From the NCBI GenBank assembly GCA_048939765.1, contig JBHLPF010000021.1, positions 1-53,232 on the forward strand: a stretch of DNA of 53,232 nt. The letters run 5' to 3'. This DNA is from Promethearchaeota archaeon (GTDB lineage: Archaea > Asgardarchaeota > Thorarchaeia > Thorarchaeales > Thorarchaeaceae). The notes under the pieces were generated by a model, which saw only the letters and a program-made list of their open reading frames with translations, was not told the origin of the DNA and ran no database searches. The translations under genes were made by a program, and so were the position numbers. Shown piece by piece: positions 25,106 through 42,156 of this stretch; position 1 is the first letter of the stretch, and every line of letters starts with the position of its first letter.

Positions 25106-25681
25106 CAGAAGCTCTCCGGGCTCGCGAAGGGGAATCTGACGGTGATTTAAGAGTAGCGAAGGAACCAATCTATGAATCGAACTCTTTTGTCATCTAGAGA
25201 AAGCAACTTGCTCCCCCCACAAAAGGCTCTGAAATCTATATTGTAGGCGTCGGCCGGAGTTTTTGCAATTTGGGTCGTGTGTGTGGAGTCAGTATGCCAA
25301 TAGGCATGGAAGTCATTGAACTCTTTTCGGAGCATAGAAGGCCGACGCTCTGATCTCCATATATCATCTCTATAATATATATGAAATTGTCATATACTAT
25401 ATGATGTGCTACGAGGATACAAATGGCGCCATTCATGAGAGAGGCCGGTGCGATGTTCTGAATATGGAGCCCATTGGGTTAAAGTGATATCAAACCACGA
25501 ACGAAGAGCATCTGGCATCTCCTAATAGCGCCATTCGAAAAATCGCATAGGTTTTGATTTTTTGGAATCAATATTCACCCAGTTGTTTAATATGTGGGAG
25601 AGACGATTCTCTCACATCCTCAGCTGAGTTCAATTCAGGAGCAGTATGGGTCACACTGCATCTATTGGAGGAGACATTAGA

Positions 25682-28600
25682 ATGCACAGTCGTCGGACTC
25701 TTTCATTCACAATCTTGCTATTGCCGATTCTTCTTCTGTCGACCTTTGGAGGTCATAATATCATAGGACAAGATGCTGAAAGCTCTCGCCTTGTAGATAT
25801 TGGAGGAGGACAGACTATCGAAGTTCAATCGGACGAAGTTCTGCGGTCATACAGCCTTTCTGACTCGCCGCTTGCTCGTGAGGGTGTGGGTTCTCCTCTC
25901 AACGGTTCAGAATACGGTACTCGTACTGACAGCTTCACTGACATCGAACTCACTTATGAAACCTCTAACACGACGACTTCCGACACAACCTCTGTGCCAT
26001 TGGGTCCCCTGTGGGAAGGCACAACAATATCAACTTCTATTAGTGACCTTCAAGAGAATCGAACCTGGTTGACAAATCCAGGTTTTGATTCTGATACTGA
26101 TTGGACACTTGGAACTGATGATGTAGGCATATACATCAATACACTCGATACCTCAATCACTGGAGGTGTTGTCAGCTTCACGCAATCTGGATATGATACT
26201 GGAACATGGTTCCGACATGACTTGGGAGATCGCTGCTATGCTGAACAGGGCATTTCAACAAATAGTGGTGAAGTTACATGGGTTGGAGTGTCTCTAGATT
26301 ACTGGGTGGATGATAATTGGGGTGGAGCACCTGTTGGATTCTGGGAACTCTATGTTCAAGTTGGAAGTGCGGATGTTGTTGCCAATCACTTGTGGGATAT
26401 GCAGTTCAGCGACGTTCTTGCTCAGACAACTTGGTACTCAACAGGTCTTGTTGAGGCAAATGCGTCACTAATTGCATCCTCAGATTTCACATTGCAGGTT
26501 GGAATGAGAACAACTCGGTCATTTGGCTGCAGGCCTCAACTGAATCCTGAAGTGCAAATGGATAATGTGAGGGTGTTTGTTAAGTCACGTGTATATCCAT
26601 CTCAAGTTAATCTGCAGATGAATGGATTGGGTGTTGGCAATGTGAGCGATGGTCTTGGGGGATGGTTATGGAGTATAGGAACTGCAACTGAAGTTCCGCA
26701 GACTCCATTGATTGGTAATTATGTCAACTCAACTTTCACATGGACACCCACACCAGTCAATCCTGATCCAAATGAAGTCATTCGTGTAAGTTTTTCAGTT
26801 GAAATGACGGTATACGCTCGGAAACTGAATGCCTCGTCACTGTATCAGGCAGAAGTGTCAAGCTATGGAGACCACTTTTCAGTTACAAATGGCTCTCAGG
26901 TACAATGGGAGAGTTACTACTTTGTCGCAGTTCCCAATGGATATTCAAATCTGTACTTCTTCAATCTCACAAAAGAGACGACCCGAACATTCGATATGGT
27001 GTCCGAACCTCGATATCCTGGTTCTGACTTTGTCTATTGGACTCAAGATTCAGCAAGTGTGAATGTGTCTGTGTATGAAGGAATCACTGACACATATCAA
27101 AATGGATTCTGGAAACTAAAAGGCCATTCAAGCAACATGATCCAAGATCTCCGGATGTGGACAGGCTCGTCTTGGGATACAACCTTCACATACCGAGCCA
27201 ACGCCAATGTTCGATTCCAGGCTCAACTCGGCTCTGCCTTCAATGGGGCAGTGGTAAGCTTCTCAATCTATGATACTTCTGGTGCACTGTGGGACAGCCT
27301 TGAAGCCACAGTTGTTGGAGGATTCGCTGAAACCGCAGATGTGAATCTTGATGCTTTGACAGCTGAGGTCGGACAATGGACTGTTGAAGCCTTTACGAAC
27401 GACTCTATCTCTGGCGGCCCGATTCATGATGTGGGTCTTTACGGCAGAGAGTTTACGATTCAACATGCCACAGATATGTATGTGACATACCCGCGGCAGT
27501 CTCAGATCAATTGGATGAGGAATCTCACATATGGCCAGGACATGTTGCTTCAGTTGAGAGTCAATGACTCTGATAATGGTGACCTTCTTCCTGGCGGTGC
27601 CGCCACCTACAATTGGACTAGTGGATTAAATCCATTAAATGACATGGGGACAGGAGAGTACAGCATTGTACTGAACACCGCTGATTTGGGCACCCCCGGT
27701 CGATATGCCATCACTCTGACATGGAGCCATGCCTACTATGACTCAATCCTAGAAACATTCGTCATCAATGTCATCGAAGAAACAAGTCTAAGCTCCCCTG
27801 ATGCGCCAGGGCTGACAGTTCCTCGAAGTTGGGATGCATCCTTCGAGCTCATCTTTGCTGACTCTCGTGATGCAGGTATTAGTGGCGCCACTATACTCTG
27901 TAATTGGACCGACTCATCATACAGCGTTGTCCCAGCTCCTGGGGAACCTGGGAACTACACATTGACAATAACAACTCCGAATACGAATCTAGGAACATAT
28001 GCAGTGATAGTCACTGCGCAGAAGGACTTCTACGTCACAGCCAGCATCACATTGTTCGTTGAAGTTAGGCAATTGTTCACATCTGTGTCGACATCCCGGA
28101 GTGTTGTCTATCTTCCAATCGGATTCCAGGAGTCAGTTTCACTGACAGTATGGGACACAGATCATGATCTGCCCATTACTGGGGCTGAGAGCTCGATAGT
28201 ATGCAATTGGTCGGAAAGCCATGTTTTAGGTGAACAGAACTATACTGTGACCATGACATCTCCAGGAGTATACGACGTTGTATTCTTCTCCACTGAAACA
28301 GATTTTCTACAGAGCTACGATGTCGTCTTTGATGTGAGTAGGTTTGGCTACCAGAATCATACTCTCTCAATTACTGTTATCGTGACCAGCCATCTTACGC
28401 TCTTGTCTCTTGATAACCCCGTTGCGCCTACACCTTATACCGGGACGATTCTCATCAATGTGACGTATTTCGATGGGTCAACACTCTCAGGCATAATTGG
28501 GTCTGAAGTCCTAATCTATGTGACCTCTCCAGTCGTCGAGCCCCTGAGCTATTCGGTATACAATGGGTCAATCGCTGGACAATACATTATTGCTGTCCCG

Positions 28601-31600
28601 GCAGGCCAATGGGGTGATATTGGTTGGAAACAACTATCAGTATATGCGAATTGGACTGGCCAACGCGCAAAGTACGCCAACAAAGTGCTGACCTTCTCAG
28701 TAAGACTCTCTGGAGCCCCGACCGATCTGTTTCTAGGGACCAGTCCCACATCAACGCCTTATGGCGAGAATGTCACATTCACAATAATCTACTGGGATGT
28801 TGGCGCCGACAGCGGAATTGTAAATGGCACTGGCCCATTCGCAAATAACGTCCTCATCTATATCGAAGTAATCACACCCGGCCAGGTATTAACACAGAGC
28901 CTCATGGTGATTACAGAAATCAATTCCATTGGCAGTCCTGGCGAGTATGGGATAGAGTTCAATTCATCCTATCTGTCCGGACTGATTGAATGTCAGCTGC
29001 GGATACATGTCAACTGGACAAAGGGAGCCCTTCCGTTATATGAGAACAGAACCTTACTACTCAGCGTCTTTTCCACCTACAGGCAGACAGTTGTCAACTG
29101 GAATCCATTACCAGTCACCCCTTACGATGAGAAGGTCAACCTCACACTGACCTTCAAGGATGTACTGTCGGACAGCAATATCCGTAATAGCTCAAGTCTT
29201 CTGATTACGACACCCGGCTATGCTTTCACAGTCTATTATGACGGTGATGCCACTGGCATATTCTTCATAGAGGTTGATACATCGCTCTTCTTATCAACGG
29301 GACCGCATTCGTTTCAAGTGAGTCTTGTATGGTCAGGTAGTCCATTCTATCAGAATCGTACGGTTGACATTCTCATCAATGTGCGTGAACGATATACATC
29401 GCTAACGCATGGCGTGTACTCACCGGTTGAATTCGGCAACAATTTGACCTTGGTATTCACATACACTGATCAGGATGATCTCACATCACTCGGAATGGAT
29501 GGAGGGACTCTCACAGTCACGGGAATGGCTGGGCTCTACGATGTCACAGACAATGGCGATGGAACTTACACTCTTGAGTTAAGGACCAATGGCTTCCCAT
29601 CGACTGGAACTTTCATTGTCAACGTTTCAATTGCCTACGGGGGAGCCAGGTTCTGTGCTGATGCTATTGATTTCTTCTACTTGACCATTCAGGCTAGACG
29701 TACCCAGATGACTAGTGAGCTTCCAAATCTTGCACCATTCCTGACTCAAGCTAACATAACTGTTCAGTACATCGATGACAGCACTGATACGGGAATTGAA
29801 GGAGCTCAGGTATTCGCGTACTGTGCAACGTCTTCACAGCCTCTTATGCAAAACACCAACTACCGGGTCGATGACCTCGGCTCTGGCTACTACAGAGTCC
29901 GCATATCAACTGTTGCCCTTGGCAATTTCGGTCGATATACAATTGAAATCACGGCAAATTGGACTGGCAGTCCCTTTTACCTGGAACGAGTCCGACTTGT
30001 GGATATTGAGGTTTCAAGAAGACCTGTCAGCCTGAGTGTTTCAAAATCACCACTCAACACACCCTTCCTTGAGAATGTGGAGTTCGAATTGACAATAGCC
30101 GATTCTCTTGATGGCTCTCCATTATCACTCAACAAGAGTGTGCTCATACTCACACATAATGGAGGCACGCTGATTCTGGATTCAGAATATAGTATCAGTG
30201 GTGCCAATGGTGTCTATGTAATATCAATCAACTCAACGGTGCTTACGTCTGTTCTGGTTTCAGGTCATCCGTTATTTGTGAAGTTCTTCTGGGGCGATTT
30301 GACTCCATATTATGCGAACGCAACAACATCGACTGCAGTCGACATCAATGCTCGCTTCACACAAGGTCGTGTGCTTACAACCCCTGGTGCCTTCTATTAC
30401 TTCAACTTGAGTGCCATCATCGAGTTCAGTGACTACCTATCTGGCAATCCCATCCCTGGTGCCGTGGTGACTTTCACATGTGTCAATGATTCGGTATTCT
30501 CAAGTTGGATTGTTGACATGGGCGATGGACGTTACAAAATAATCGTCGATACAAACGATCTTGAAGATGGCATAGGTCGTTACTATTTCAGTGCCGATAT
30601 CACATGGTCTGGGTCTCCATATTATGAAGACGTCATTGGAGTGGAGTTCAGTGTGCTAGTCAATCCGGTTTCAACTAGTCTGAATTTCGTCCTACCTCAA
30701 GGAGTCACATACTATCTTGGTGACCTAGTAGTTGGTAACATCACCTTCACCAACATCAACGAAGGTCAAGGCATTGATGGAGCCACTGTTGTTAGTGATT
30801 GGACAACCCTCTGGGGAACCGTGCACACAATCACTCCACTTGGAAACGGCATCTACAGGATGGAGATTGACACATCAGGACTCAATGCGCAAATCTACAC
30901 TTTCAGCATTAATGCTTCAAAATTCCTGCACCTAAGCAGGTCAGTCACAGCTGACATTCTCTTGGCAGCTATCCCTGTTGAAATTGATTTAGTCTTCTCA
31001 CCTACTGACCCTGTTTGGGGTGATGTGCTTGAGTTTAGTGCTGATGTCACTGATGCTCGAAGCGGAGCCCCAGTCTTGGGGGCAAGTGTAAACCTCACCC
31101 TTTATGGACAAACACATACTATGCCCGAGATCGGTGGAGGAATCTACAATGTCACTGTTTCTACAATGGGCCTTGTTAGTGGAGAATACACCATCAGGGT
31201 CGAATCTTTCCTATTGAACTACGAAACTAGACAGAGGGATTTCCAAATTCGGATAGACAAAGTCGCAGCGAAAATTCTGGCCTCCCTGGACCCACAAGTT
31301 GCAGTGAATGGGGAAACGGTGACTATTGAGGCTGAGTATTTGATCCTATCAAACAGTACGGTAATAGACATCGGAGTAGTGCAATATAGCTGGATCGGAG
31401 GTACAGGTATCCTGACATGGGTACCTGCGCAGCAGAAGTATATAGGCGAGATGATTGTTGCCAATGCGGCTGTAGGAAATCACCAGATTCTGATTCAAGC
31501 AAGCTCTTCAATCTACAAGAGTGTAAGCACCCCAATTACCATTGAGATTACTGAGATAACTACCGCACTCTCTGCATATCAAGATGTAACAGTTTTGTCA

Positions 31601-33406
31601 GCAGTTTCTGGTGACACTGTAAATGTAACCGTGTATTTGGAGAATGTAGATCTCACAGGGCCTGTACTTGGGGCATCGCTTACCTACGGAATATCGACAA
31701 TCAATGGTTCCCTTACTGAGCTGGGGAACGGTTTCTATACAGCTCAAGTTCCAACTGGAGCACCCCTTCAGATAGGTGACTGGATTCTTACTGTATCCAG
31801 CTTCATTGATGGCTATACTCCAGCGTCGATGCAGTTCACCATTACAATTCTCAAAGTGTCTACGGCTGTCATTCCGATTAGTGATGTACTGCAGAATGGA
31901 TACTACGGAAACAACTTGACGTTCCTATTGAGCTTCAATGACACCTTCAAGAATATTGGAATAACTGGTGCACTGGCAACATATGTGCTAGAAGGTAGGG
32001 GTGGCACACTTGCGGAAGTCGGTGGTGGAGTCTACTCTTTAACCATCAATACCACCTGGGTTACAGCTGGGCTAATCTCCCATGATATCTCTGTAACCTT
32101 CCAAAAGAATCTCTATGACTACGCCTACAGTGTTGTTAAGTTTGTATCAGTACCAATCTCCACTGAGGTTATAGGGTCTGATTCCGCGACTTTTCCGGTT
32201 GGTGACGACTTCACTCAGATGTTCCAGTTTAATGATACTCTAAACAATGAGTTTCTGGTGGATGCATCTGTTACAGCCTTCTGGGAGTTTGGTTCTGCTC
32301 CACTCCTTGCGTTGGGCAATGGATCGTATAGATTCGGTCCCACAGAGGCTGGCTTTAGCAGGCTGGAAGTGAGAAGCGAACCCTATGCACTTAGGATTTT
32401 ATTCAGCAAAGCTAACTACTCAACACAGCAGCTGAACTTCGAACTCACGATTCGCGAGATTGCGACTTCAATGATATTTGAACCTCTACCTCCAAGCATC
32501 TATGTCGGAGATCCATTCTATGTCCGCATCACATACATGGATGACGATCATGGTGTTCCAATCATCGACGCAATCAACACAACTATTCCCCTAGAGAATG
32601 AAGCCAGTCTTGCCATGGTTTATCCCAATGGTACGTATGTATTTGCTTTCGTTCCAAGTGCGGTTCGCTACTATGAGTTAGTCATCACACTTGAAAAAGA
32701 GGACTACCGGAAGGGTGTCTTAACTTTGGATATTTACTCTGTGTTCTCTCCTGAAACCCAGGCCATGTTTCAGACATTCAGCTATGCAGGCTTCTTGTTG
32801 ATTTTGGTTGCAGGTCTGGCGGCTGCATATGTGAGAGTCTGGTCTGTTCCGAAGCTTCTCAGAATCATTAGACGTATGGTTTCATTGCTCGGCAAGGGGC
32901 AAATTCCACCGGCTGCAAAGGTCCGTAATAGAAGAACATACCTCCTAGGTGTGATGAATGAGGATTTGGAGCCTGTTGGCATCAAGAAGACTATGCAGGA
33001 TGTTGCTGTTTCTACAGTCGAGGTAGAAGCCCTAGATGTTGAACAGCTACTAGAAGAGCTGCAGGTTGTCGTCGGCCTGAGCAATGACGACATAGCCGTT
33101 CTCAGGAGTGACCTTGAAAAGATGCGACCCAGCGAGCGTGCAGGGTTCATTGGAGAGGTCATCCGACAGGAGAGAGCAAGGAGAGCTCGCGAATTGGCCG
33201 AGGTTGAGGTGCCAGCTGAGGCACCTGGCGAGGTTTCAGAGGCTGAACGTAAGCTCACGGAGGAAGAGCTTGAGCATTTGAAACAGGAGCTCATCAAGAT
33301 GGGAATAGAACCATCCGAAGCGGATCTCATGGTGGAGCAAGCAAGATCGCTGACTAAAGCGGAAATAGACGCACTGCTTGATCAAATAGGAGGTCTGAAA
33401 GAATGA
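25682..33406 (+). CDS. Giant single-pass surface protein A (signal peptide, beta-rich head, many Ig-like repeats, TM helix, ~185-aa helical cytoplasmic tail)
   Basis: Open frame of 7.7 kb. Likely start is ATG 25682 after GGAGGAG. Repeated D/N-x-G-x-G-x-Y-x-hydrophobic motifs roughly every 100-115 aa, abundant N-x-S/T sequons, TM helix at about 32770-32840. Confidence 0.85.
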   Translation: MHSRRTLSFTILLLPILLLSTFGGHNIIGQDAESSRLVDIGGGQTIEVQSDEVLRSYSLSDSPLAREGVGSPLNGSEYGTRTDSFTDIELTYETSNTTTSDTTSVPLGPLWEGTTISTSISDLQENRTWLTNPGFDSDTDWTLGTDDVGIYINTLDTSITGGVVSFTQSGYDTGTWFRHDLGDRCYAEQGISTNSGEVTWVGVSLDYWVDDNWGGAPVGFWELYVQVGSADVVANHLWDMQFSDVLAQTTWYSTGLVEANASLIASSDFTLQVGMRTTRSFGCRPQLNPEVQMDNVRVFVKSRVYPSQVNLQMNGLGVGNVSDGLGGWLWSIGTATEVPQTPLIGNYVNSTFTWTPTPVNPDPNEVIRVSFSVEMTVYARKLNASSLYQAEVSSYGDHFSVTNGSQVQWESYYFVAVPNGYSNLYFFNLTKETTRTFDMVSEPRYPGSDFVYWTQDSASVNVSVYEGITDTYQNGFWKLKGHSSNMIQDLRMWTGSSWDTTFTYRANANVRFQAQLGSAFNGAVVSFSIYDTSGALWDSLEATVVGGFAETADVNLDALTAEVGQWTVEAFTNDSISGGPIHDVGLYGREFTIQHATDMYVTYPRQSQINWMRNLTYGQDMLLQLRVNDSDNGDLLPGGAATYNWTSGLNPLNDMGTGEYSIVLNTADLGTPGRYAITLTWSHAYYDSILETFVINVIEETSLSSPDAPGLTVPRSWDASFELIFADSRDAGISGATILCNWTDSSYSVVPAPGEPGNYTLTITTPNTNLGTYAVIVTAQKDFYVTASITLFVEVRQLFTSVSTSRSVVYLPIGFQESVSLTVWDTDHDLPITGAESSIVCNWSESHVLGEQNYTVTMTSPGVYDVVFFSTETDFLQSYDVVFDVSRFGYQNHTLSITVIVTSHLTLLSLDNPVAPTPYTGTILINVTYFDGSTLSGIIGSEVLIYVTSPVVEPLSYSVYNGSIAGQYIIAVPAGQWGDIGWKQLSVYANWTGQRAKYANKVLTFSVRLSGAPTDLFLGTSPTSTPYGENVTFTIIYWDVGADSGIVNGTGPFANNVLIYIEVITPGQVLTQSLMVITEINSIGSPGEYGIEFNSSYLSGLIECQLRIHVNWTKGALPLYENRTLLLSVFSTYRQTVVNWNPLPVTPYDEKVNLTLTFKDVLSDSNIRNSSSLLITTPGYAFTVYYDGDATGIFFIEVDTSLFLSTGPHSFQVSLVWSGSPFYQNRTVDILINVRERYTSLTHGVYSPVEFGNNLTLVFTYTDQDDLTSLGMDGGTLTVTGMAGLYDVTDNGDGTYTLELRTNGFPSTGTFIVNVSIAYGGARFCADAIDFFYLTIQARRTQMTSELPNLAPFLTQANITVQYIDDSTDTGIEGAQVFAYCATSSQPLMQNTNYRVDDLGSGYYRVRISTVALGNFGRYTIEITANWTGSPFYLERVRLVDIEVSRRPVSLSVSKSPLNTPFLENVEFELTIADSLDGSPLSLNKSVLILTHNGGTLILDSEYSISGANGVYVISINSTVLTSVLVSGHPLFVKFFWGDLTPYYANATTSTAVDINARFTQGRVLTTPGAFYYFNLSAIIEFSDYLSGNPIPGAVVTFTCVNDSVFSSWIVDMGDGRYKIIVDTNDLEDGIGRYYFSADITWSGSPYYEDVIGVEFSVLVNPVSTSLNFVLPQGVTYYLGDLVVGNITFTNINEGQGIDGATVVSDWTTLWGTVHTITPLGNGIYRMEIDTSGLNAQIYTFSINASKFLHLSRSVTADILLAAIPVEIDLVFSPTDPVWGDVLEFSADVTDARSGAPVLGASVNLTLYGQTHTMPEIGGGIYNVTVSTMGLVSGEYTIRVESFLLNYETRQRDFQIRIDKVAAKILASLDPQVAVNGETVTIEAEYLILSNSTVIDIGVVQYSWIGGTGILTWVPAQQKYIGEMIVANAAVGNHQILIQASSSIYKSVSTPITIEITEITTALSAYQDVTVLSAVSGDTVNVTVYLENVDLTGPVLGASLTYGISTINGSLTELGNGFYTAQVPTGAPLQIGDWILTVSSFIDGYTPASMQFTITILKVSTAVIPISDVLQNGYYGNNLTFLLSFNDTFKNIGITGALATYVLEGRGGTLAEVGGGVYSLTINTTWVTAGLISHDISVTFQKNLYDYAYSVVKFVSVPISTEVIGSDSATFPVGDDFTQMFQFNDTLNNEFLVDASVTAFWEFGSAPLLALGNGSYRFGPTEAGFSRLEVRSEPYALRILFSKANYSTQQLNFELTIREIATSMIFEPLPPSIYVGDPFYVRITYMDDDHGVPIIDAINTTIPLENEASLAMVYPNGTYVFAFVPSAVRYYELVITLEKEDYRKGVLTLDIYSVFSPETQAMFQTFSYAGFLLILVAGLAAAYVRVWSVPKLLRIIRRMVSLLGKGQIPPAAKVRNRRTYLLGVMNEDLEPVGIKKTMQDVAVSTVEVEALDVEQLLEELQVVVGLSNDDIAVLRSDLEKMRPSERAGFIGEVIRQERARRARELAEVEVPAEAPGEVSEAERKLTEEELEHLKQELIKMGIEPSEADLMVEQARSLTKAEIDALLDQIGGLKE

Positions 33407-36400
33407 AGCCATCAATGAGATTGACCCTGGTTCTGGTATTGGCATTCATGCTTGCCTTTGGAGCGTCAGGCCCAACTGCTTTCAACCTCAACTCGTTCAG
33501 CAGAAACGGCCAGAATACGAATCCTACTGCAGATTCCATGCAAAGCCCATTAGGCATCGAAGATAGAGCGTTCGCACTGTCTGAGCAGGGAATGGTGACT
33601 TGGCAAGGTACTTCATCAGGAATTCCTGCTATGGCATATGGCAATCGAACAGATATCCATCTAGACAACCAGATGCTCTATTCTCCAGGTACTGGTACAA
33701 CTACCGAAACCTCCGTTTCCATTCCAATGGGGGATGATTGGGAAGGTCATGAGTTATTTGTTGAGGTATATGATTTAACGGAGAATCGTACCTGGATACA
33801 AGACCCTGATATGGAGAGTAGTCCTTCAACATGGACACTTGGGACAGTACCAGTTGGAGGTGGTGCACAGCCTTATGCAAATTGGTTGACTGACGGACAT
33901 GGTGCCGGTGACGATTGTGCACAATTCGAAATGTATGACCCGACGCCTCCTGGAGATCCATCAGTAGGAGAAAGAGCCTACGCTAGGCAGAATGTGGCTG
34001 TGAATCGCGGAGATGTGGTATGGGCTGGTCTTCGTCTGGATTATTGGATAGACTCAGCGTGGGGAGCTGATGGCTTTGTTGCAGTATATGTTGCTGTGGA
34101 AACGAACGACTACACACAAAGGGTATGGCAGAAGTCCTTTGCTGATGTAGATTTAGCTCAAACATGGTACGATAGTGGCCTTGTGGTTTTGCAGGACCTC
34201 TCGACCTTTGACCTTTCTGATGGACTCGATATAGAAGTTGGCCTCTATAGTCAACAAACCGTAGACTACCAACCAGATCTCGAACCGGAGGCAAGAGTCG
34301 ATAATATCCAGCTCTACATTATGACTCTAACAGATCCGAGTGACCTAAATCTACAGGTCAATGGGCAAGATGTGGAGGATTTCATGACTGGAGGTTCTTC
34401 AACGCCAGGTTTGGGAAATATGACTCAGATACCTGTTCCTTCGTGGACAGCATCTCCTGTTGAAATAAATGTAACCTGGACACCGATACCTTCCACACCT
34501 GACCCAGATAGGGAAATTCGAGTGGACTTCAACATCATGACAAACCTCTATGCAAGACATGTGGAAACAACAGTTACTACACAAAATCCAACTGCATTTG
34601 GTGATATCTTCACAGTTGAAAATGCCACTGACGTGGATTACCTGACTTGGTTCAACGCTGATATTCCACCCGGATACGACAACAGATACTTCTTCAACAT
34701 GACACTTCCAGAAGGGCGCGACGTCTTCTACGTAGGATCGCCTCTCCTGACCTCAGAAAACATAACTGATTGGGATGAAGGTCATGGTCCAACCTGGTTC
34801 GCGAATATATCCGCATTTAACTATCCTGACAGATGGGGCTATTGGTTGATTAAGAGTACTGGGCCGAATATGATATCCGATGTCTTAATGTTCGATCCAT
34901 CCACCCGCTCGAACTCAAGGTTCCTTGACCTGCGTGCTGGAGATACTGCGAAGCTAGTCACGCATTTGGACCCAGGCTTCGCTGGTGTCGATGTGAATCT
35001 AACAGTCTATTCACCATCAGGGGCAATTTGGTACACAACTCTGGCAACGGTGAACAGCACCGGATATGCAGAAACCCCTGTATTGACCTTCGGACAGAAC
35101 GCCACCGCTGGTAGCTATGTCCTTGAGGCCTTCTGTGGTAATTCAATAGGTGTGACCGCATGGAATGAAACTGGCTTCTTCAGACGTGCATTCAAGGTTG
35201 TTCATGCTTCAAATTCAGAGCTTCTCAACCCCGTTGATGCACAGGTTACATGGATAACAAATGTGACATATCCCGATCTATTCCTTGTCAGAATACGTAT
35301 CAATGACAGCGATATACTTGGAGTGACTGTACCAGGAGGGCAGATGTCATGCAACTGGACAACTGGTCCTCAGGCTTTTGGAGATGCTGGAAACGGGGAG
35401 TACATTATAACACTTGATTCCGGTGACCTACCATCGAACGGCATCTGGATTATAGAAATCACATGGACTCACCCGCACTTTGATTCCATAGTTGATTACT
35501 TGACAATCAATCTGAACTACGATGCAACGTTCGTACTTGAGAACCCTGAATCACCTGGAATTTCAGTGCCCAAGAATTACAACTCTAGCTTCCAAGTTAG
35601 ATTCGAGGATTCGACGGGGAATCCAATTGACTATGGACGTGTGGACTGCAACTGGACAAGCTATTACACTGTCAATCCTGTCCTAGGTTCGCCGGGGAGT
35701 TACCTCGTCTGGCTGAATACGACATTTGTGGACATGGGTGAATATGTCGTGGAAGTCACCGGCAAAGCCAATTTTGTACTTCCACAGCGATATCTCATCT
35801 ATGTGACCGTGAGAGAACTGAATACTAGAGCCACTTATGTCCAGAATGTGCTTGAGATTCCAGTTGGCGAAGCTAGTTCATTCACAGTAGATTGGATGGA
35901 CGCAGATCATGACATTCCTCTGACAGGACTAAATGATTCAATTACAACTACTTGGACAGGAGCTTATGCAGTGAATGAGGTCTCACCTGGCCTTTACAAC
36001 ATCACAGTTTACACATCGGATAGCGATGCTCCAGGCAATTATTCGGTATCAGTCAGTCTCTCCGGATACCTAATGAGAAATCAGACGTTCACAATATCTG
36101 TTGTCATTAGGTCTCATAGTACACTATTCACTCTAGACGAACCACTCCAGCAGACTCAATTCAATGAACAGGTGATGTTGCTGGTCTTCTTCCAAGATAC
36201 TGACTTGCAGGTCGGTATCACAAACATCACTGGAAACGTGCGGATTACCATCACTTCGCCAGAGATTGGAAATGTCCAATTCACATTAGTGGGCTCTTCA
36301 CTTGGTGATGGGCATTACAACATGACTATTCCCAGCACTCAATGGGGCAGCGCGGGATGGAAGAATCTGACAATATCAGTTTCATGGAACGGAGCCAAAT

Positions 36401-39400
36401 ACACAGGTCAATCCTTCAGCACTCAAGTGCGTTTGACTGGGACGGCGACAGACATTTTCCTAGACCAAGCTCCTACTGCGGTCTATTTCCTGAATGAATT
36501 CAGCTTCTCTGTTATCTACTATGACGTGACAAATACAACGAACATATCAAACGACACACTCAATGTCATGCTGAAAATTGATTCACTTACAGCAGGACAC
36601 CCTGTTACTCAGAGTGATTTCATTGTGACGGAAACAGGAGTTGGAACGGGGATATATGAATTCAGATTGGACAGCGCGCAACTGGACTCCACTGGTTCAT
36701 TCATATTCCGCATCGGATTCATGTGGCCAAAGGGAGTATCACCTCTATATGAAAACCAGACCATGACTGTTACCCTCGTGGTGCTTCAGAGACCCACATA
36801 CATCGACTATATTCCAGTGCCATCGACACCCTATGGTGAGCTCGCTGATCTGGAATTCAGCTACATAGACTTCCTGACAACTACGCGCATTGGTGACTCT
36901 CCTCAGATGTCAATATCTCTAATCAATGGAAGTGTAGGCTATTCCTATTCATATGACTCAGGTGAGATGTCCTTCCTTCTTCGAGTTGATACATCAACAT
37001 TGGCCGGAATTGGGAGTCACGTTCTAGTCTTGAATGTCACTTGGATCGGTTCACCGTATTACACAACCACTGTGACGTTGGTGTACACAGTTACAGTAAT
37101 CCAGAGAGCTACCCAATTGACGCATGATTCATTCGCTCCTGGTCAATGGGGCAACAACGTGACTATCCAATTCACATATACAGACCTAGTGGCTGAATCT
37201 TCTGCAGGAATGACTGGAACTCTCACATTGAACGCATCCCTAGCTGGATGGTACACGGTCGTCTATGCAGGAAATGGACATTATCTTGTAACTGTGAACA
37301 CATCTGGAGTTGGAGCCGATGGCCTCTATACGATTGTAGCCAGTATTGATCACACCCAGCCAACATTTGCCAGTGCTATTGACACATTCGGCTTTTCGGT
37401 GCTTCAGCGGTCTACGCAGTTCGGATATGAGAGTCCAGACCCAGCCCCATATTTGGAGAATGTTTCTTTTGTAGTCACATACATTGATGACAGCACAGCA
37501 AGAGGTGTCAGCGGAGCATCAGTCATTGTAGATTGCAGCAACTCCACGTTTGTACTCGCGTTGAATACAAATTACTGGGTAACATACCTCGGATTAGGGC
37601 AATATCTCATAGAAGTAGAAAGCACTGCTCTAGGGAATCTAGGAACATATGTCCTGAGTGTATCTGTATCTTATTCTGGCGCGCCCTACTACCTTCCTGC
37701 GAATAATGATGTCACCTCTAGAGTGGTTGAGAGAACAACGCAGATTCTCATTATTCAGACTCCGGGTGAAACGCCATTCCTCGAGAATGTGACATTCCAA
37801 TTCAAGTTTGAAGACTACATCACTGGAATGATTATTCCTATCGACAAGTCGCACATCACCTTGTCACACGGAGTGGCAGAAACTCCTATCACAATGGGTG
37901 AGTACTCCTTGTACGACTTTGGAACACATTATGAGATTAGCTTCAATTCTACCGTTCTCAATCCTACAGACCTTGTTGTCGGTGAAGCGATTCAACTTGA
38001 GATTGACATAACTGGTGCTCCTCCCTATTATGCACTAAGAAGCACTAATACCATAGCCACTACAACTGAAAGGTCCACGCAGATACTCTTCCCACTGATT
38101 GAAGAAGTACCTTATACTGACAACTTTACGATTGAGCTCGACTATATTGACTTTTTGACTGGTCAAGGTATCGAGAATGCACAGATAGAGTTGACAAGTG
38201 GGAATTGGACTGGCTCACCATATCAAGTCGTAGAATTGGGCAGCGGCTCATATGAAGTCTACATCAATTCAACCGTCTTCGGTGGCATTGGCACTGTCTT
38301 CTTTGATATCCTAGCCAGCAGGGAAGGAGTCCCATTCTACTCCTCTAGGCTCGCTACTGGTGTACCTGCAAGCATACGAGCAATCATCACTTCTCTCGTT
38401 GCAGAGGCGCCTCCGCCTGGTTCGACAGCGGTTGGTGTTCCAATCAATGTCACACTGATTCTCATGGACTTCGATCATGATATACCTCTATCTGGCGCTG
38501 TTATCACAACTGATTGGACTTCTCTGTATGGAACAAGTTATACACTCGTTGAGGAAGGCAGTGGCGTCTACACCCTAACGCTCAACATGATTGGGTTAAT
38601 AGCACAAGATTACTCGTTCACAGTCACAGCCCAGAAGACACTATATCAAGACTCAAACGTCGTTGTTTCAGTTACTCCCGGAGCTTCAACTTTCGCACTC
38701 GTTCTTCATAAGACTGCAATCTATGCGCTCTGGGGTGAGGTTCATGACATCCGCATTGACGTGAGAGAGAGCTACTACTACAGTCTTATTCCCGGGGCGA
38801 ATGTGACTCTCCTCTGGAATAGCACCTTATACTACTTCACCGACTTGGCAAATGGTACATATTCGCTAATGCTTGACACATCAAATGAGAACTTTGGCGT
38901 TTACAATCCGCAGATATCCGTATCAAGGCAATACTACCAGACACGTCAGACTAGTCTTGCTCTCGTGGTATCAAAAGCACCAGGTCAAATTCTTAGCGAG
39001 CAAACAGTGTTTGATGTGGTTGTTAACACAACGCGCGTCTTCATCATCTACCTCAATGACACTATCACGGATTCTCCTGTTGTTGCCTCATCAATTACTA
39101 TGGAGTGGAATAATACCGCCTATCCTCTTGTTTCAAATGGAACCCCTGGTTTCTATATTGCAAGCATTGATGCCACAGGGTTTGCATTGGGTCCGTATGA
39201 AGCGGTGATCAGTGCGGCTTCCTTGAACCATGTATTCCTTGATGCAATTGTAGATATCAACGTAGTTCCTATTCCAACGAATATAGGGTTAGTGAGCGGT
39301 GCAGCAGCATTGTTTGTGGTGCGAGGTGCAATGCTCTCAATTCTTGTTGAATACAATGATACGTACTATGGTGGATATGTTCCTGGCGCAAATGTCACAT

Positions 39401-41097
39401 ATGTTCTTGGTGGCCTAAAAGGCACTCTTACAGAGAATATCAATGGTACTTACAATGCCACAATTGATACCAGTGGTCTGCCTGCTCAAACGATATTCCT
39501 TAGAATCATAGGCATTCGAACTGGAATGGCTACAGCTACGAGGACTCTGGTTGTTACAATACAACCTGTGCCTACTGAAGTGACTGTAGATACATTGCTG
39601 CACGAAGGATACCATAACGACGTTGTGGAGTTCACTTTCCACTACAATGACACATACAATCTCCAGCCCATTGCGGGAGCCTTTGTGGACATTAGTTGGG
39701 AAGGCGGGACAGGGGATGTAACTGACCTTGGTAATGGATATTATCTTGTTGAGATCACTCTGACTCCAACCTCACCTAGGCTCTATGATATAGTGGCAAG
39801 CTTCAGTCTACAGAACTATTCCTTATCATCACTTACTGTGAGAGTTCTCATAACTGCTACTCCAGCACATATTGAAGGACCAATGGCGTACGACGTTCCT
39901 GTCAATCACACTGGCTCTGTCGTATTCAATGTAATCAATGATTTAACAAATGAAACCATTGAGGGTCTTCAGGGATTGGCATATTGGGAAAGTGGACTGA
40001 TAATGGAGCTCTTCCAGATGGGCAATGGTAGCTATGAATTGAGAGTGCCAGACTATCTCATCATGACGAGCTATCGGATTGAGATTGGATTCTCCACGTC
40101 GATTTACAGCCTCTCCTCGCAGTTCCTCGACCTGACTGTTCGTCCAGTTCTCACCTTCATTGATACACTCGGACTAAATACGACAATAGTTACAAACCCA
40201 GGAGCTCAGGATTCTATAGTAATACTTCTTCGAGACCTAGACCATGATGTGGGAATCAGCGATGCCAATGCATCCGTTAGTTTTGATCCCGCACTAATCT
40301 CATTTCCAGAGGAAAGGAGGACCGTCGATTTGGATGGCGTCTACACCTTCCCATATGTAGTACGCGAGGGTGGCACAATCACTGTGACTATCACCTTCAC
40401 AAAGGACTTGTACTTCTCCCAGCAAATCACCTTCACTCTGAAATCAGACTACTCAGAAGAACAGCTACTGACTCAGAGACTGGCAGTGGGCGGAGGCTTC
40501 CTCTTTATCCTTCTGGCTATTGGGATTGTCGCATACGTCAAGCACTTTGCCATCCCATGGATCATTCGACAGCTGAATAAGATGATAGCTGCATTAGCCA
40601 AAGGAAAAGTTCCACGTGCGCCGAAGGTGCGTGCCAGAGAAGATCTGGTCCTTGAGATTGTCAATGAGGAACTGAAGCCATCTGGACTTGCTAAGGAGCT
40701 TGAGGATGTTCCAGGTCCAAGTATTGAAGCAGTGGTTCCTGAGGTTGAAGACCTTCTGGAGCACCTGGCGCAGATTACCGGTCTTGGAGAGGTTGAGCTA
40801 GAGGCATTCAGACAGGACCTTGCCCGGATGCGTGCAAGTGAGCGACCTGGATTCATTCGTGAGGTAATTGAGCAGGAGGAGGCTCGACGAGCAGAAGCAT
40901 TGGCTGAGGCTGAACCTGTCCCCGCTGAGGCCAAGGAGATTCTAGAAGACAAACCTGAGGAGCTTGAAGAGCTTCGCTTGAAGTTGAAGCGAAAAGGCAT
41001 GTCTGATGATGAGATTGAGATCATCATTGAACAGGCAAAGAGCCTATCAAAGGCTGACCTTGAAGCTCTCCTTGACAGTCTTGGAATTAAGCTCTGA
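33403..41097 (+). CDS. Giant single-pass surface protein B, paralog of protein A
   Basis: ATGA overlap with gene A. Colinear similarity, e.g. DLQENRTW/DLTENRTW, TWTPTPVNPDP/TWTPIPSTPDP, PLYENRT/PLYENQT and TPFLENV. TM helix at about 40480-40545. Confidence 0.85.
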   Translation: MKPSMRLTLVLVLAFMLAFGASGPTAFNLNSFSRNGQNTNPTADSMQSPLGIEDRAFALSEQGMVTWQGTSSGIPAMAYGNRTDIHLDNQMLYSPGTGTTTETSVSIPMGDDWEGHELFVEVYDLTENRTWIQDPDMESSPSTWTLGTVPVGGGAQPYANWLTDGHGAGDDCAQFEMYDPTPPGDPSVGERAYARQNVAVNRGDVVWAGLRLDYWIDSAWGADGFVAVYVAVETNDYTQRVWQKSFADVDLAQTWYDSGLVVLQDLSTFDLSDGLDIEVGLYSQQTVDYQPDLEPEARVDNIQLYIMTLTDPSDLNLQVNGQDVEDFMTGGSSTPGLGNMTQIPVPSWTASPVEINVTWTPIPSTPDPDREIRVDFNIMTNLYARHVETTVTTQNPTAFGDIFTVENATDVDYLTWFNADIPPGYDNRYFFNMTLPEGRDVFYVGSPLLTSENITDWDEGHGPTWFANISAFNYPDRWGYWLIKSTGPNMISDVLMFDPSTRSNSRFLDLRAGDTAKLVTHLDPGFAGVDVNLTVYSPSGAIWYTTLATVNSTGYAETPVLTFGQNATAGSYVLEAFCGNSIGVTAWNETGFFRRAFKVVHASNSELLNPVDAQVTWITNVTYPDLFLVRIRINDSDILGVTVPGGQMSCNWTTGPQAFGDAGNGEYIITLDSGDLPSNGIWIIEITWTHPHFDSIVDYLTINLNYDATFVLENPESPGISVPKNYNSSFQVRFEDSTGNPIDYGRVDCNWTSYYTVNPVLGSPGSYLVWLNTTFVDMGEYVVEVTGKANFVLPQRYLIYVTVRELNTRATYVQNVLEIPVGEASSFTVDWMDADHDIPLTGLNDSITTTWTGAYAVNEVSPGLYNITVYTSDSDAPGNYSVSVSLSGYLMRNQTFTISVVIRSHSTLFTLDEPLQQTQFNEQVMLLVFFQDTDLQVGITNITGNVRITITSPEIGNVQFTLVGSSLGDGHYNMTIPSTQWGSAGWKNLTISVSWNGAKYTGQSFSTQVRLTGTATDIFLDQAPTAVYFLNEFSFSVIYYDVTNTTNISNDTLNVMLKIDSLTAGHPVTQSDFIVTETGVGTGIYEFRLDSAQLDSTGSFIFRIGFMWPKGVSPLYENQTMTVTLVVLQRPTYIDYIPVPSTPYGELADLEFSYIDFLTTTRIGDSPQMSISLINGSVGYSYSYDSGEMSFLLRVDTSTLAGIGSHVLVLNVTWIGSPYYTTTVTLVYTVTVIQRATQLTHDSFAPGQWGNNVTIQFTYTDLVAESSAGMTGTLTLNASLAGWYTVVYAGNGHYLVTVNTSGVGADGLYTIVASIDHTQPTFASAIDTFGFSVLQRSTQFGYESPDPAPYLENVSFVVTYIDDSTARGVSGASVIVDCSNSTFVLALNTNYWVTYLGLGQYLIEVESTALGNLGTYVLSVSVSYSGAPYYLPANNDVTSRVVERTTQILIIQTPGETPFLENVTFQFKFEDYITGMIIPIDKSHITLSHGVAETPITMGEYSLYDFGTHYEISFNSTVLNPTDLVVGEAIQLEIDITGAPPYYALRSTNTIATTTERSTQILFPLIEEVPYTDNFTIELDYIDFLTGQGIENAQIELTSGNWTGSPYQVVELGSGSYEVYINSTVFGGIGTVFFDILASREGVPFYSSRLATGVPASIRAIITSLVAEAPPPGSTAVGVPINVTLILMDFDHDIPLSGAVITTDWTSLYGTSYTLVEEGSGVYTLTLNMIGLIAQDYSFTVTAQKTLYQDSNVVVSVTPGASTFALVLHKTAIYALWGEVHDIRIDVRESYYYSLIPGANVTLLWNSTLYYFTDLANGTYSLMLDTSNENFGVYNPQISVSRQYYQTRQTSLALVVSKAPGQILSEQTVFDVVVNTTRVFIIYLNDTITDSPVVASSITMEWNNTAYPLVSNGTPGFYIASIDATGFALGPYEAVISAASLNHVFLDAIVDINVVPIPTNIGLVSGAAALFVVRGAMLSILVEYNDTYYGGYVPGANVTYVLGGLKGTLTENINGTYNATIDTSGLPAQTIFLRIIGIRTGMATATRTLVVTIQPVPTEVTVDTLLHEGYHNDVVEFTFHYNDTYNLQPIAGAFVDISWEGGTGDVTDLGNGYYLVEITLTPTSPRLYDIVASFSLQNYSLSSLTVRVLITATPAHIEGPMAYDVPVNHTGSVVFNVINDLTNETIEGLQGLAYWESGLIMELFQMGNGSYELRVPDYLIMTSYRIEIGFSTSIYSLSSQFLDLTVRPVLTFIDTLGLNTTIVTNPGAQDSIVILLRDLDHDVGISDANASVSFDPALISFPEERRTVDLDGVYTFPYVVREGGTITVTITFTKDLYFSQQITFTLKSDYSEEQLLTQRLAVGGGFLFILLAIGIVAYVKHFAIPWIIRQLNKMIAALAKGKVPRAPKVRAREDLVLEIVNEELKPSGLAKELEDVPGPSIEAVVPEVEDLLEHLAQITGLGEVELEAFRQDLARMRASERPGFIREVIEQEEARRAEALAEAEPVPAEAKEILEDKPEELEELRLKLKRKGMSDDEIEIIIEQAKSLSKADLEALLDSLGIKL

Positions 41098-41133
41098 TCT
41101 GTAGTGACTGAGTGAGAGGAGCAACTTCTTCTC

Positions 41134-42156
41134 TCACCTCGCCCTCTTTCGTCTTCTAGTGACAATGCCAAGGGCAATAAATCCAACAACAACACTAAAC
41201 CACAGGGTGACGAATCGAATGATGATAGTAGCTGCGCCCGCTATTGCATAAGATGTACTTAGGAGCAAGATAATCAAAGCCGTGCTTGACACCTCATATG
41301 TTCCAAGCCCTCCAGGGAGAAAAGATAGCGCTCCAATCACTGAAGCAGTTGTGTGAATGAATGTGGCAATCATTAAGAGAGTGATTGAGGTTGAAGTGAG
41401 GTTTGGAATTCCCGCACCAGTCATCAGTGATAGGAGTAGCCAAAGCTCAAGACACTCCATGAACCAGCCTGGTATGCTTATGGCAGTACTAAGAGTCATA
41501 GGCTGAGGCGAGAGAGTCTTCTTCATCGTATCTTGAATCAAGTCTACACTGTCCTGAAACCTCTTCAGAGGTCCAAAAGATGTCATCTTTCTCAGGAAGA
41601 CATTGTAGAATCTCGGCTGACCCAGAAATATTGCCCCAATTAGGACAATTCCGCCGAGCAGCAAAACGGTCGTAAGCTGATCAACTCCTGATAGGCCTAA
41701 TACTAATCCTATCATTGCAAGCAAGACCATTGCCAAAAGGTCTGTGACTCGTTCTGACACCACAATAGGCACGGTCTTTGCAATCGGAGTATCATCCATA
41801 TCGTTGATGAAGTACGCCTTTACCGCTTCCCCAATCTTGCCGGGAGATGTTGTTAGTGTAAAGCCTGCCAGGAAAATGCTAAAGCTATCAGCGTGTGAGA
41901 GATTTACATTTATTCTATGGAGGAAATATTGCCACTTGATGTATCGTAGGATATAGTTCAGAAATGACAGGCCCATCATTACTGGAAGAACCCACCACCA
42001 CTCAATAGCTGCCAATGCTGCAAGGATTTCATCGAATTCCCGGAAGAGGAGAATCGCAAGGTAGAGAATGACGCCAGCAAATACAAAAATCAAGACTTTG
42101 CGGAGACTAACAAAGGACTCCTGAGCTACATTGTCTGATTCCGACTCATTGCTCAT
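41134..42156 (-). CDS. Lysylphosphatidylglycerol synthase TM-domain / flippase-like protein (AglD2/UPF0104 family)
   Basis: LRYIKWQYFL, PGKIGEAVK, ERVTDL, PGGLGTYE and IIRFVTLW motifs. Multi-TM protein. Confidence 0.88.
   Translation of the reverse strand: MSNESESDNVAQESFVSLRKVLIFVFAGVILYLAILLFREFDEILAALAAIEWWWVLPVMMGLSFLNYILRYIKWQYFLHRINVNLSHADSFSIFLAGFTLTTSPGKIGEAVKAYFINDMDDTPIAKTVPIVVSERVTDLLAMVLLAMIGLVLGLSGVDQLTTVLLLGGIVLIGAIFLGQPRFYNVFLRKMTSFGPLKRFQDSVDLIQDTMKKTLSPQPMTLSTAISIPGWFMECLELWLLLSLMTGAGIPNLTSTSITLLMIATFIHTTASVIGALSFLPGGLGTYEVSSTALIILLLSTSYAIAGAATIIIRFVTLWFSVVVGFIALGIVTRRRKRAR

Follow-up and report, generated by a model that had tools for sequence, protein, structure and literature searches.

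A conserved tail of predicted helical modules on giant surface proteins of Thorarchaeota: a candidate docking platform beneath the membrane

Introduction

What do the giant surface proteins of Asgard archaea carry on the inner side of the membrane that holds them? The question is raised by a 53,232-nucleotide stretch of DNA from a Promethearchaeota archaeon of the Thorarchaeaceae (NCBI GenBank assembly GCA_048939765.1, contig JBHLPF010000021.1, positions 1 to 53,232 of the forward strand), which is called the window here. It holds two adjacent paralogous genes, A and B (Table 1), joined by an ATGA overlap in which the start codon of B lies over the stop codon of A. Their translations have the same layout: a signal-peptide-like hydrophobic N-terminus comes first, then an ectodomain of about 2,370 residues, then one hydrophobic helix, and last a tail about 185 residues long. 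The ectodomains are rich in N-x-S/T sequons, and Pfam finds only weak matches in them, to immunoglobulin (Ig)-like or beta-sandwich families. A is a giant type-I single-pass surface protein with a signal peptide, a beta-rich/Ig-like ectodomain, one transmembrane (TM) helix and a cytoplasmic tail.

The tail is our subject. A sequence-only reading of the window, made before the work described here, had flagged the interval 32845-33406 as a conserved cytoplasmic tail made of a duplicated three-helix module, and had suggested for it an unnamed, possibly UBA-like, protein-interaction domain by which the receptor might be linked to the cytoskeleton or to trafficking. All the strings quoted in that reading are found in the translations of A and B, and the interval is indeed the tail of A, with a start that lies one base out of frame. 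Our results indicate that the tail is in all likelihood a genuine folded domain family. As a whole it is probably best explained as a docking platform for proteins at the inner face of the membrane.

Results

The tail is predicted to be folded. AlphaFold2, given an alignment of 60 sequences, modelled the tail of A with a mean predicted local distance difference test (pLDDT) score of 91 and a predicted template modelling (pTM) score of 0.49. Along the tail, whose helices are listed in Table 1, confidence falls only at an acidic, Pro/Ala-rich stretch, residues 122-138, and the low pTM fits two bodies joined by a flexible tether. On each side of this stretch the model places three helices, which we call module M1 and module M2. 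The acidic Pro/Ala linker and the two helix-G-helix-helix units of the sequence-only reading are thus both recovered, and the disorder that would have spoken against it is not seen. M2 modelled alone gave a three-helix bundle again (pLDDT 87, pTM 0.66), and its motif is LS..E.E.LR..L...G.P..EI..I.EQA..LP..L..L. Ahead of the modules stands a juxtamembrane helix (residues 3-16) that is strongly amphipathic, with a hydrophobic moment of 2.06. Tail residues 1-30 have a net charge of +9, and the remainder of the tail has one of -19.

The tail is also more conserved than most of the ectodomain, as had been proposed, and the alignment of A with B and that of the orthologues of A agree on this. In a global MAFFT alignment A and B are 32% identical overall and 18-40% identical in 100-residue windows of the ectodomain, whereas the two final windows, into which most of the tail falls, reach 41% and 50%. 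When the parts were aligned globally one by one, identity was 45% in the tail vs 27-36% in three 700-residue blocks of the ectodomain. The tail of A, searched against 5.8 billion protein clusters, gave 82 giant orthologues, nearly all of them labelled Thorarchaeota. Their tails are 55-92% identical to that of A (mostly 61-69%) and their ectodomain blocks about 40-65%, the three closest relatives excepted. Within the tail, the mean frequency of the commonest residue among these orthologues is 0.82 in M1, 0.81 in M2, 0.73 in the juxtamembrane part and 0.48 in the linker, which is both the least conserved segment and the one with the lowest pLDDT (59-79).

Conservation reaches residues that a fold would not seem to need. 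The exposed polar or charged residues R87, D89, K92, R94, S96, E97, R98, E104 and Q108-R113 of M1 are at least 95% conserved among the 82 orthologues, and, judged from the alignment, this is more than folding alone would appear to require. In an alignment of nine paralogous tails from the same genome, L72, M93, S96, F101, E104, V105, I106 and Q108 of M1 and E141, L149, G153, E158, Q165, L169 and L177 of M2 are invariant, and every one of these columns is present in both A and B. A and B also carry the whole signature of the family: the juxtamembrane motif (V/I)P(K/W)..R....M...L.KG.(I/V)P, the M1 core M.xSE...F..EVI.Q and the M2 core G....E......Q...L.......L.

The nine paralogues are giants of 2,500-4,000 residues, A and B included, and in all of them, as in all full-length representatives from the databases, the tail follows directly on a single C-terminal TM helix. 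When hidden Markov models (HMMs) of the modules and the tail of A were searched against all open reading frames (ORFs) of at least 60 amino acids in the genome, only these nine giants were found, and no soluble protein carrying either module; in this genome the tail of A matches that of B at E 1e-36 with 46% identity. Two of the nine have four consecutive copies of M2, and the paralogues have linkers of 13 to about 70 residues. Scored against 1.84 billion representative proteins, a profile built from the nine tails gave only 133 clusters at 50% identity. The tail is C-terminal in every full-length member (at least 1000 residues), and the full-length representatives have M1 with one M2 (n = 42), M1 with four M2 (n = 4) or M1 only (n = 2), so that the number of units in the family runs from 1 to 5. 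The copy number of M2 differs between paralogues (1 or 4) and is constant within each orthologue group.

Across 400 Asgard genomes, strong matches to the tail were found in 81 of the 85 genomes of the same family and in the one genome of a sister family (1/1), and are thus limited to the Thorarchaeota order. Three other families have weak matches, in 11/19, 1/3 and 2/4 of their genomes, and the remaining families have none, for example 0/135 in the largest. Submitter labels of 'Odinarchaeota' and 'Hodarchaeota' on a few close matches conflict with this genome-based distribution and were not relied on. Several relatives of about 2,880-2,920 residues (P0008, P0019, P0044, P0051 and others) have an A-type tail, at 61-77% identity, beneath N-terminal heads with NHL/six-bladed beta-propeller Pfam domains that gene A does not have; the head of these giants therefore seems to be exchangeable, while stalk and tail are kept.

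The database matches also include some short proteins. P0187 (185 residues) and P0205 (191 residues) have no TM helix and consist of a domain of about 100 residues of no known kind followed by a clear M1. They are the only TM-less carriers in the databases, and their contigs measure 0.9-1.6 kb. A search of the 400 Asgard genomes with the N-terminal domain of P0187 (that of P0205 was not searched) gave no match; the two proteins may be artefacts, or relatives of the tail that are soluble. P0174, P0196, P0203, P0206 and P0207 join an unrelated N-terminal fragment (response-regulator receiver, isoprenyl transferase, MoaB-like or OPT-transporter-like) to a piece of the tail and look like chimeras of assembly or gene calling, not new architectures. 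P0213 (457 residues) and P0214 (161 residues) are soluble and have two to five repeats that are weakly M2-like (E 1.5e-5 and 3.3e-5 in the search of 1.84 billion proteins). One source names P0214 an OHCU decarboxylase, a name for which the repeats do not account.

Genes for tail-bearing giants stand in pairs. In this genome they form same-strand tandem pairs on contigs C57 (1-7974 and 8032-17565) and C75 (1-9750 and 9744-21722) and in the window (25646-41097), and many of the related genomes among the 400 have tail-bearing giants about 10 kb apart. The most similar tails belong to tandem partners in two of the three pairs (A-B 0.43, C57a-C57b 0.71), and the tail of C75a is closest to that of C58, not to that of its partner C75b. 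In relatives, several longer frames of 4,000-5,600 residues that end in the tail (among them G385:C25, G386:C5, G317:C3, G340:C19 and G363:C1) have exactly one in-frame TAG or TGA. This may reflect read-through of two tandem genes in the same frame, a sequencing error or recoding.

No described family accounts for the tail. We searched ten tails (A, B, two others from Thorarchaeota, three from a Hermodarchaeia-type family and three from small-genome Asgard families, both introduced below) with Pfam-A and NCBIfam and obtained nothing above cutoff, which is in keeping with the earlier description of an unnamed domain family: the tail profile defines a folded, conserved cytoplasmic family to which neither library assigns a name. 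The nearest sub-threshold models were BET, DUF3106, RecX_HTH1 and Pex14_N. The BET ET domain (PF17035) scored at best 19.9 bits (E 8e-4) vs a cutoff of 24.5, on Hermodarchaeia units only, and did not match tails A and B. Sequence profiles of the Protein Data Bank (PDB), searched with Thorarchaeota tails, M2 units and Hermodarchaeia tails, gave no match below E 0.009, the best being a de novo design. By structure, Foldseek found nothing in the PDB at E <= 0.001 for the whole tail or M2 alone, and the rows at the head of its list, sigma factors and repeats of protein A, have E >= 0.7. VIA-align, run against 48,161 chains, reached a best Z of 6.7 for M1 within the whole-tail query and 5.1-5.3 for M2 (5.1 when modelled alone). 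Its matches were three-helix bundles of a generic kind (protein A, KIX, a paramyxovirus phosphoprotein domain and de novo designs), which is background for helical proteins. A search of the ESM Atlas for the stored homologue P0093 gave no usable match.

The suggestion that the modules are UBA-like found no support. A UBA- or CUE-like module would bind ubiquitin or a ubiquitin-like protein and so link the receptors to Asgard ubiquitin or to sorting by the ESCRT complexes. M2 has the size for it, with about 45 residues in three short helices, and an invariant Gly lies between helices 1 and 2, within an 'MG' in A and B. Against this, hmmscan with Pfam-A at E <= 1 placed no UBA (PF00627), CUE or TS-N model on any of the ten tails. 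Foldseek with M2 alone listed a single UBA structure, 2dak, which ranked 26th (E 8.6, TMq 0.43, root-mean-square deviation 5.3). There was no UBA, CUE or SAM fold in the 50 best VIA-align rows for M2 alone, all of which have Z <= 5.1, nor in the rows listed for the whole tail. The loop itself also differs: G153 is invariant, but the Met before it is found only in the A and B types, with R, K, A or E elsewhere, and the residue after it is I, V, L, M, T or A and never aromatic, in place of the Met-Gly-Phe/Tyr of UBA domains. We therefore regard a ubiquitin-binding UBA or CUE module as very improbable. SAM and death-domain Pfam models likewise did not match the ten tails. One faint Pfam row of the death fold, PYRIN, fell on the tail of C57a (E 0.034, 14.8 bits vs a cutoff of 22.9), and a death-domain chain, 2of5_A, appeared at VIA-align rank 49 with Z 3.8; the modules have three helices each vs the five or six of SAM and death folds. 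The UBA, CUE, SAM and death labels are thus unsupported by Pfam, by PDB profiles and by fold searches, though it is still plausible that the modules are ligand-binding three-helix bundles of a broadly similar sort.

Are M1 and M2 copies of one another, as had been proposed? The two tails of the window taken singly do not say so: within A or B alone, M1 against M2 gave Smith-Waterman scores of 30-31 vs 27 +/- 5 for shuffles, which is chance level. An ungapped offset scan of the profiles gave negative sums throughout and did not discriminate, with offsets 59 and 76 both in the top five. The hhalign comparison of the M1 and M2 profiles scored 22.2 (P 3.3e-4, probability 38%) vs 10.2 +/- 2.3 for 150 column shuffles (maximum 17.9) and 10.1 for a reversed profile. 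This direct alignment prefers a shift of one helix and covers one helix (about 22 columns), which leaves the register unsettled.

Intermediate sequences are more informative. One of the weakly matching families, labelled Hermodarchaeia by the sources, has giants of 1,900-2,100 residues in which a closely similar juxtamembrane motif is followed by 2-3 copies of a 46-residue unit, and 26 such units from 11 proteins could be aligned without any gap. In hhalign, with z values taken against column shuffles, the first of these units matched units 2/3 with a probability of 94% (E 8.4e-8, z 14, 40 columns) and Thorarchaeota M1 with 66% (E 5.7e-5, z 7.2, 43 columns), while units 2/3 matched Thorarchaeota M2 with 57% (E 1.1e-4, z 6.2, 29 columns) and M1 with 31% (E 5.2e-4, z 5.7, 36 columns). 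The four alignments are colinear, and all are in the register of the sequence-only reading, in which the invariant core residues pair as L72/L149, M93/L169 and F101/L177. A merged profile of Thorarchaeota M1 and all Hermodarchaeia units met M2 in the same register (E 8.4e-4), and the juxtamembrane profile, as a negative control, scored 7.9-11 against every unit profile. In P0215, a diverged protein of the Hermodarchaeia type, an ungapped internal repeat scored 89 vs 34 +/- 6 for shuffles, a value reached by 0 of 2000. In two further Asgard families, which have small genomes, the same juxtamembrane motif is found on surface proteins of 600-870 residues; of four such proteins examined, three end in a single C-terminal unit and one in a Lys-rich stretch.

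It would be possible to read the same data as two unrelated small helical bundles that look alike through shared amphipathic-helix composition and periodicity. The chance-level single-sequence scores, the negative ungapped sums at every offset, the two registers that score alike in direct comparison and the hhalign probabilities, which stay below 70% wherever Thorarchaeota modules are linked, all favour such a reading. However, the Hermodarchaeia units are unambiguous repeats with colinear matches to both M1 and M2, unit comparisons score 20-35 vs 8-11 for the reversed and juxtamembrane controls, the two modules have the same helix count and lengths, and single-unit and multi-unit tails both occur in the family. 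We consider chance resemblance unlikely. More probably, repeated duplication has acted on a helix-turn-helix-turn-helix unit of about 45 residues, of which M1 and M2 are two diverged copies. The duplication seen by the sequence-only reading thus stands at the profile level and through intermediates, not within A or B alone, and its register is probable. None of the three outcomes that would have told against that reading (no significant repeat, a disordered tail, or a tail no more conserved than the ectodomain) was found.

The layout of the two genes and their tails is given in Table 1. ORFs on the opposite strand lie exactly over the two tails, at 32782-33330 (-, 182 residues) and 40473-41195 (-, 240 residues). 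That the coding strand is rich in Glu, Ala, Leu and Arg probably explains them, as by-products and not genes.

Table 1. Genes A and B of the window and the parts of their tails (positions in the window; residue numbers of parts count from the first residue of the tail of A unless stated otherwise).
Feature	Position	Strand	Description
Gene A	25646-33406	+	2586 amino acids; from ORF list and translation
TM helix of A	32777-32839	+	protein residues ~2378-2398; hydrophobic stretch before the basic tail, boundaries set by eye
Tail of A	32846-33403	+	186 amino acids; exact in-frame range
Juxtamembrane helix and Gly/Pro turn	32846-32929	+	tail 1-28; AlphaFold2 helix 3-16; motif VPK..R....M...L.KG.IP
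Second helix (29-44) and extended segment into M1	32930-33037	+	tail 29-64; pLDDT 87-98; conservation 0.69 (A-orthologues)
Module M1	33038-33208	+	tail 65-121; helices 65-77, 80-91, 95-121; invariant core KM(R/K).SE...F..EVI.Q
Acidic Pro/Ala linker	33209-33259	+	tail 122-138; lowest pLDDT of the tail (block means 59, 79)
Module M2	33260-33403	+	tail 139-186; helices 139-151, 156-166, 171-182; AlphaFold2 in whole tail and alone
Gene B	33403-41097	+	2564 amino acids; paralogue of A; from ORF list and translation
Tail of B	40552-41094	+	181 amino acids; juxtamembrane helix, M1 40744-40914, linker 40915-40953, M2 40954-41094

Discussion

Based on these results, we propose that the tail is a membrane-apposed, multivalent platform for protein-protein docking. 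The basic, amphipathic juxtamembrane helix would lie on the inner face of the membrane as a clamp, and the acidic three-helix bundles would be held out as binding beads on a flexible, acidic Pro/Ala tether, so that the tail could tie the tandem-encoded surface giants to a cytoplasmic partner. What suggests the design of a scaffold is the combination of a conserved basic helix, conserved exposed residues on M1, an acidic tether, a variable number of M2 copies and a strict tie to very large surface proteins encoded in tandem. Taken as a whole, this is in our judgement probably the best explanation of the tail. Several points weigh against it. The searches brought no partner to light, all the structures discussed here are predictions, and among the public sequencing runs that cover the locus none is listed as RNA. 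To these are added the points made above on the comparison of M1 with M2, namely the chance-level scores within A or B, the unsettled register and the Thorarchaeota-linking hhalign probabilities below 70%; and since the helices of both modules are E/L/R-rich and amphipathic, column shuffles may overstate the significance of their likeness.

The beads need not bind a separate protein. The tails may bind each other, in A-B hetero-pairing or in lateral clustering. One way would be for a chain to place its acidic bundles on the basic juxtamembrane helix of its neighbour and so organise the giants into a lattice from inside. Much about the tail would suit such self-association: the giants are encoded as adjacent, often overlapping pairs, in which partners as a rule have the tails closest to each other, charge is spread along the tail as a clear dipole (+9 and -19), the varying number of M2 copies would tune valency, and among the ORFs of at least 60 residues in the genome there is no soluble protein with either module. 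On the other side, C75a departs from the pairing, its tail being nearest to that of C58, and small three-helix bundles are in general more often ligand binders than lattice formers. Self-association seems to us possible but somewhat unlikely, and we favour, tentatively, the docking of a separate cytoplasmic partner.

The closest described proteins are PySLP and its Thermoproteota homologues. PySLP, the 'colossal' surface-layer (S-layer) protein of Pyrobaculum arsenaticum, has about 2,660 residues and many Ig-like domains, with homologues in Thermoproteota (bioRxiv 10.64898/2026.08.21.746120). It has an N-terminal signal peptide, a single C-terminal TM helix and a conserved short basic tail that ends in lysine (bioRxiv 10.64898/2026.08.21.746120). 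A and B resemble it as giant Ig-rich archaeal surface proteins with a signal peptide, a C-terminal TM helix and a basic segment just inside the membrane. They differ in that their tails add about 150 folded residues (M1, linker and M2) after the basic segment. With 186 and 181 residues, an acidic character beyond residue 30 and the ends ...GGLKE and ...GIKL, tails A and B are not anchors of the PySLP type, and no sequence relationship of these tails to that of PySLP was found.

The comparison bears on another explanation, in which the tail is an element of biogenesis or retention that serves the insertion, topology (by the positive-inside rule), quality control or turnover of long secreted chains. 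It is true that the part most widely common to the Asgard families is the basic juxtamembrane motif right after the TM helix, and that all the carriers seen are large secreted proteins with a C-terminal anchor. However, a positive-inside signal requires neither conservation at the level of a motif nor 150 more folded residues, PySLP manages with a short basic tail (bioRxiv 10.64898/2026.08.21.746120), and a C-terminal tail emerges only once the ectodomain has been translocated. We regard a role in biogenesis as a minor and improbable alternative to the docking platform.

Other known systems offer analogies to such a platform. The tails of eukaryotic adhesion receptors such as integrin beta and the classical cadherins dock adaptors, and they are short, for the most part lack structure and act by linear motifs, NPxY for example. 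A and B are like these receptors in their large ectodomain built of repeats, in their one TM helix with a basic segment next to the membrane, and in a conserved tail more constrained than the ectodomain. Their tails, in contrast, are a predicted folded pair of helical bundles without an NPxY-type motif, and the likeness is one of analogy. The modules themselves, each predicted as a bundle of three helices with about 45-60 residues, recall staphylococcal protein A, KIX, the paramyxovirus phosphoprotein XD, BET ET and UBA, and flexible linkers stand between their tandem copies, as in protein A. Structures of this general type give the best matches (Z 4-6.7), yet the scores lie at helical-bundle background and no sequence model reaches its cutoff. 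To our knowledge, none of these families has been found on the cytoplasmic side of archaeal surface proteins, and in those archaeal surface-layer anchors that have been described, the chain stops after a few basic residues inside the cell. A full-text literature search found no paper describing this tail, and an ESCRT survey does not mention it (PMC11188069). What is new here is the evidence for duplication of the unit, a copy number that ranges over 1-5, the juxtamembrane motif held in common, the spread to the Hermodarchaeia-type family and two further Asgard families, and the negative UBA tests.

A more far-reaching possibility is that Asgard archaea have an adhesion or receptor system of 'outside-in' type with the tail as its intracellular half, in which the three-helix beads recruit a cytoskeletal, an ESCRT/ubiquitin-like or a small-GTPase component. 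We hold this to be quite unlikely. If it were true, the giant surface pillars would be mechanically or informationally coupled to the cell interior, and the tail would be a prokaryotic forerunner, by analogy and not by homology, of the coupling of integrin and cadherin tails to their adaptors. Whichever reading holds, the tail defines a new domain family that annotation pipelines at present leave blank. As M1, M2 or both, it is also a short, soluble and well-defined bait for pull-downs in the few enrichment cultures available. If a partner exists, the tail would give a tangible way to study how the elaborate surface of Asgard cells is joined to their interior.

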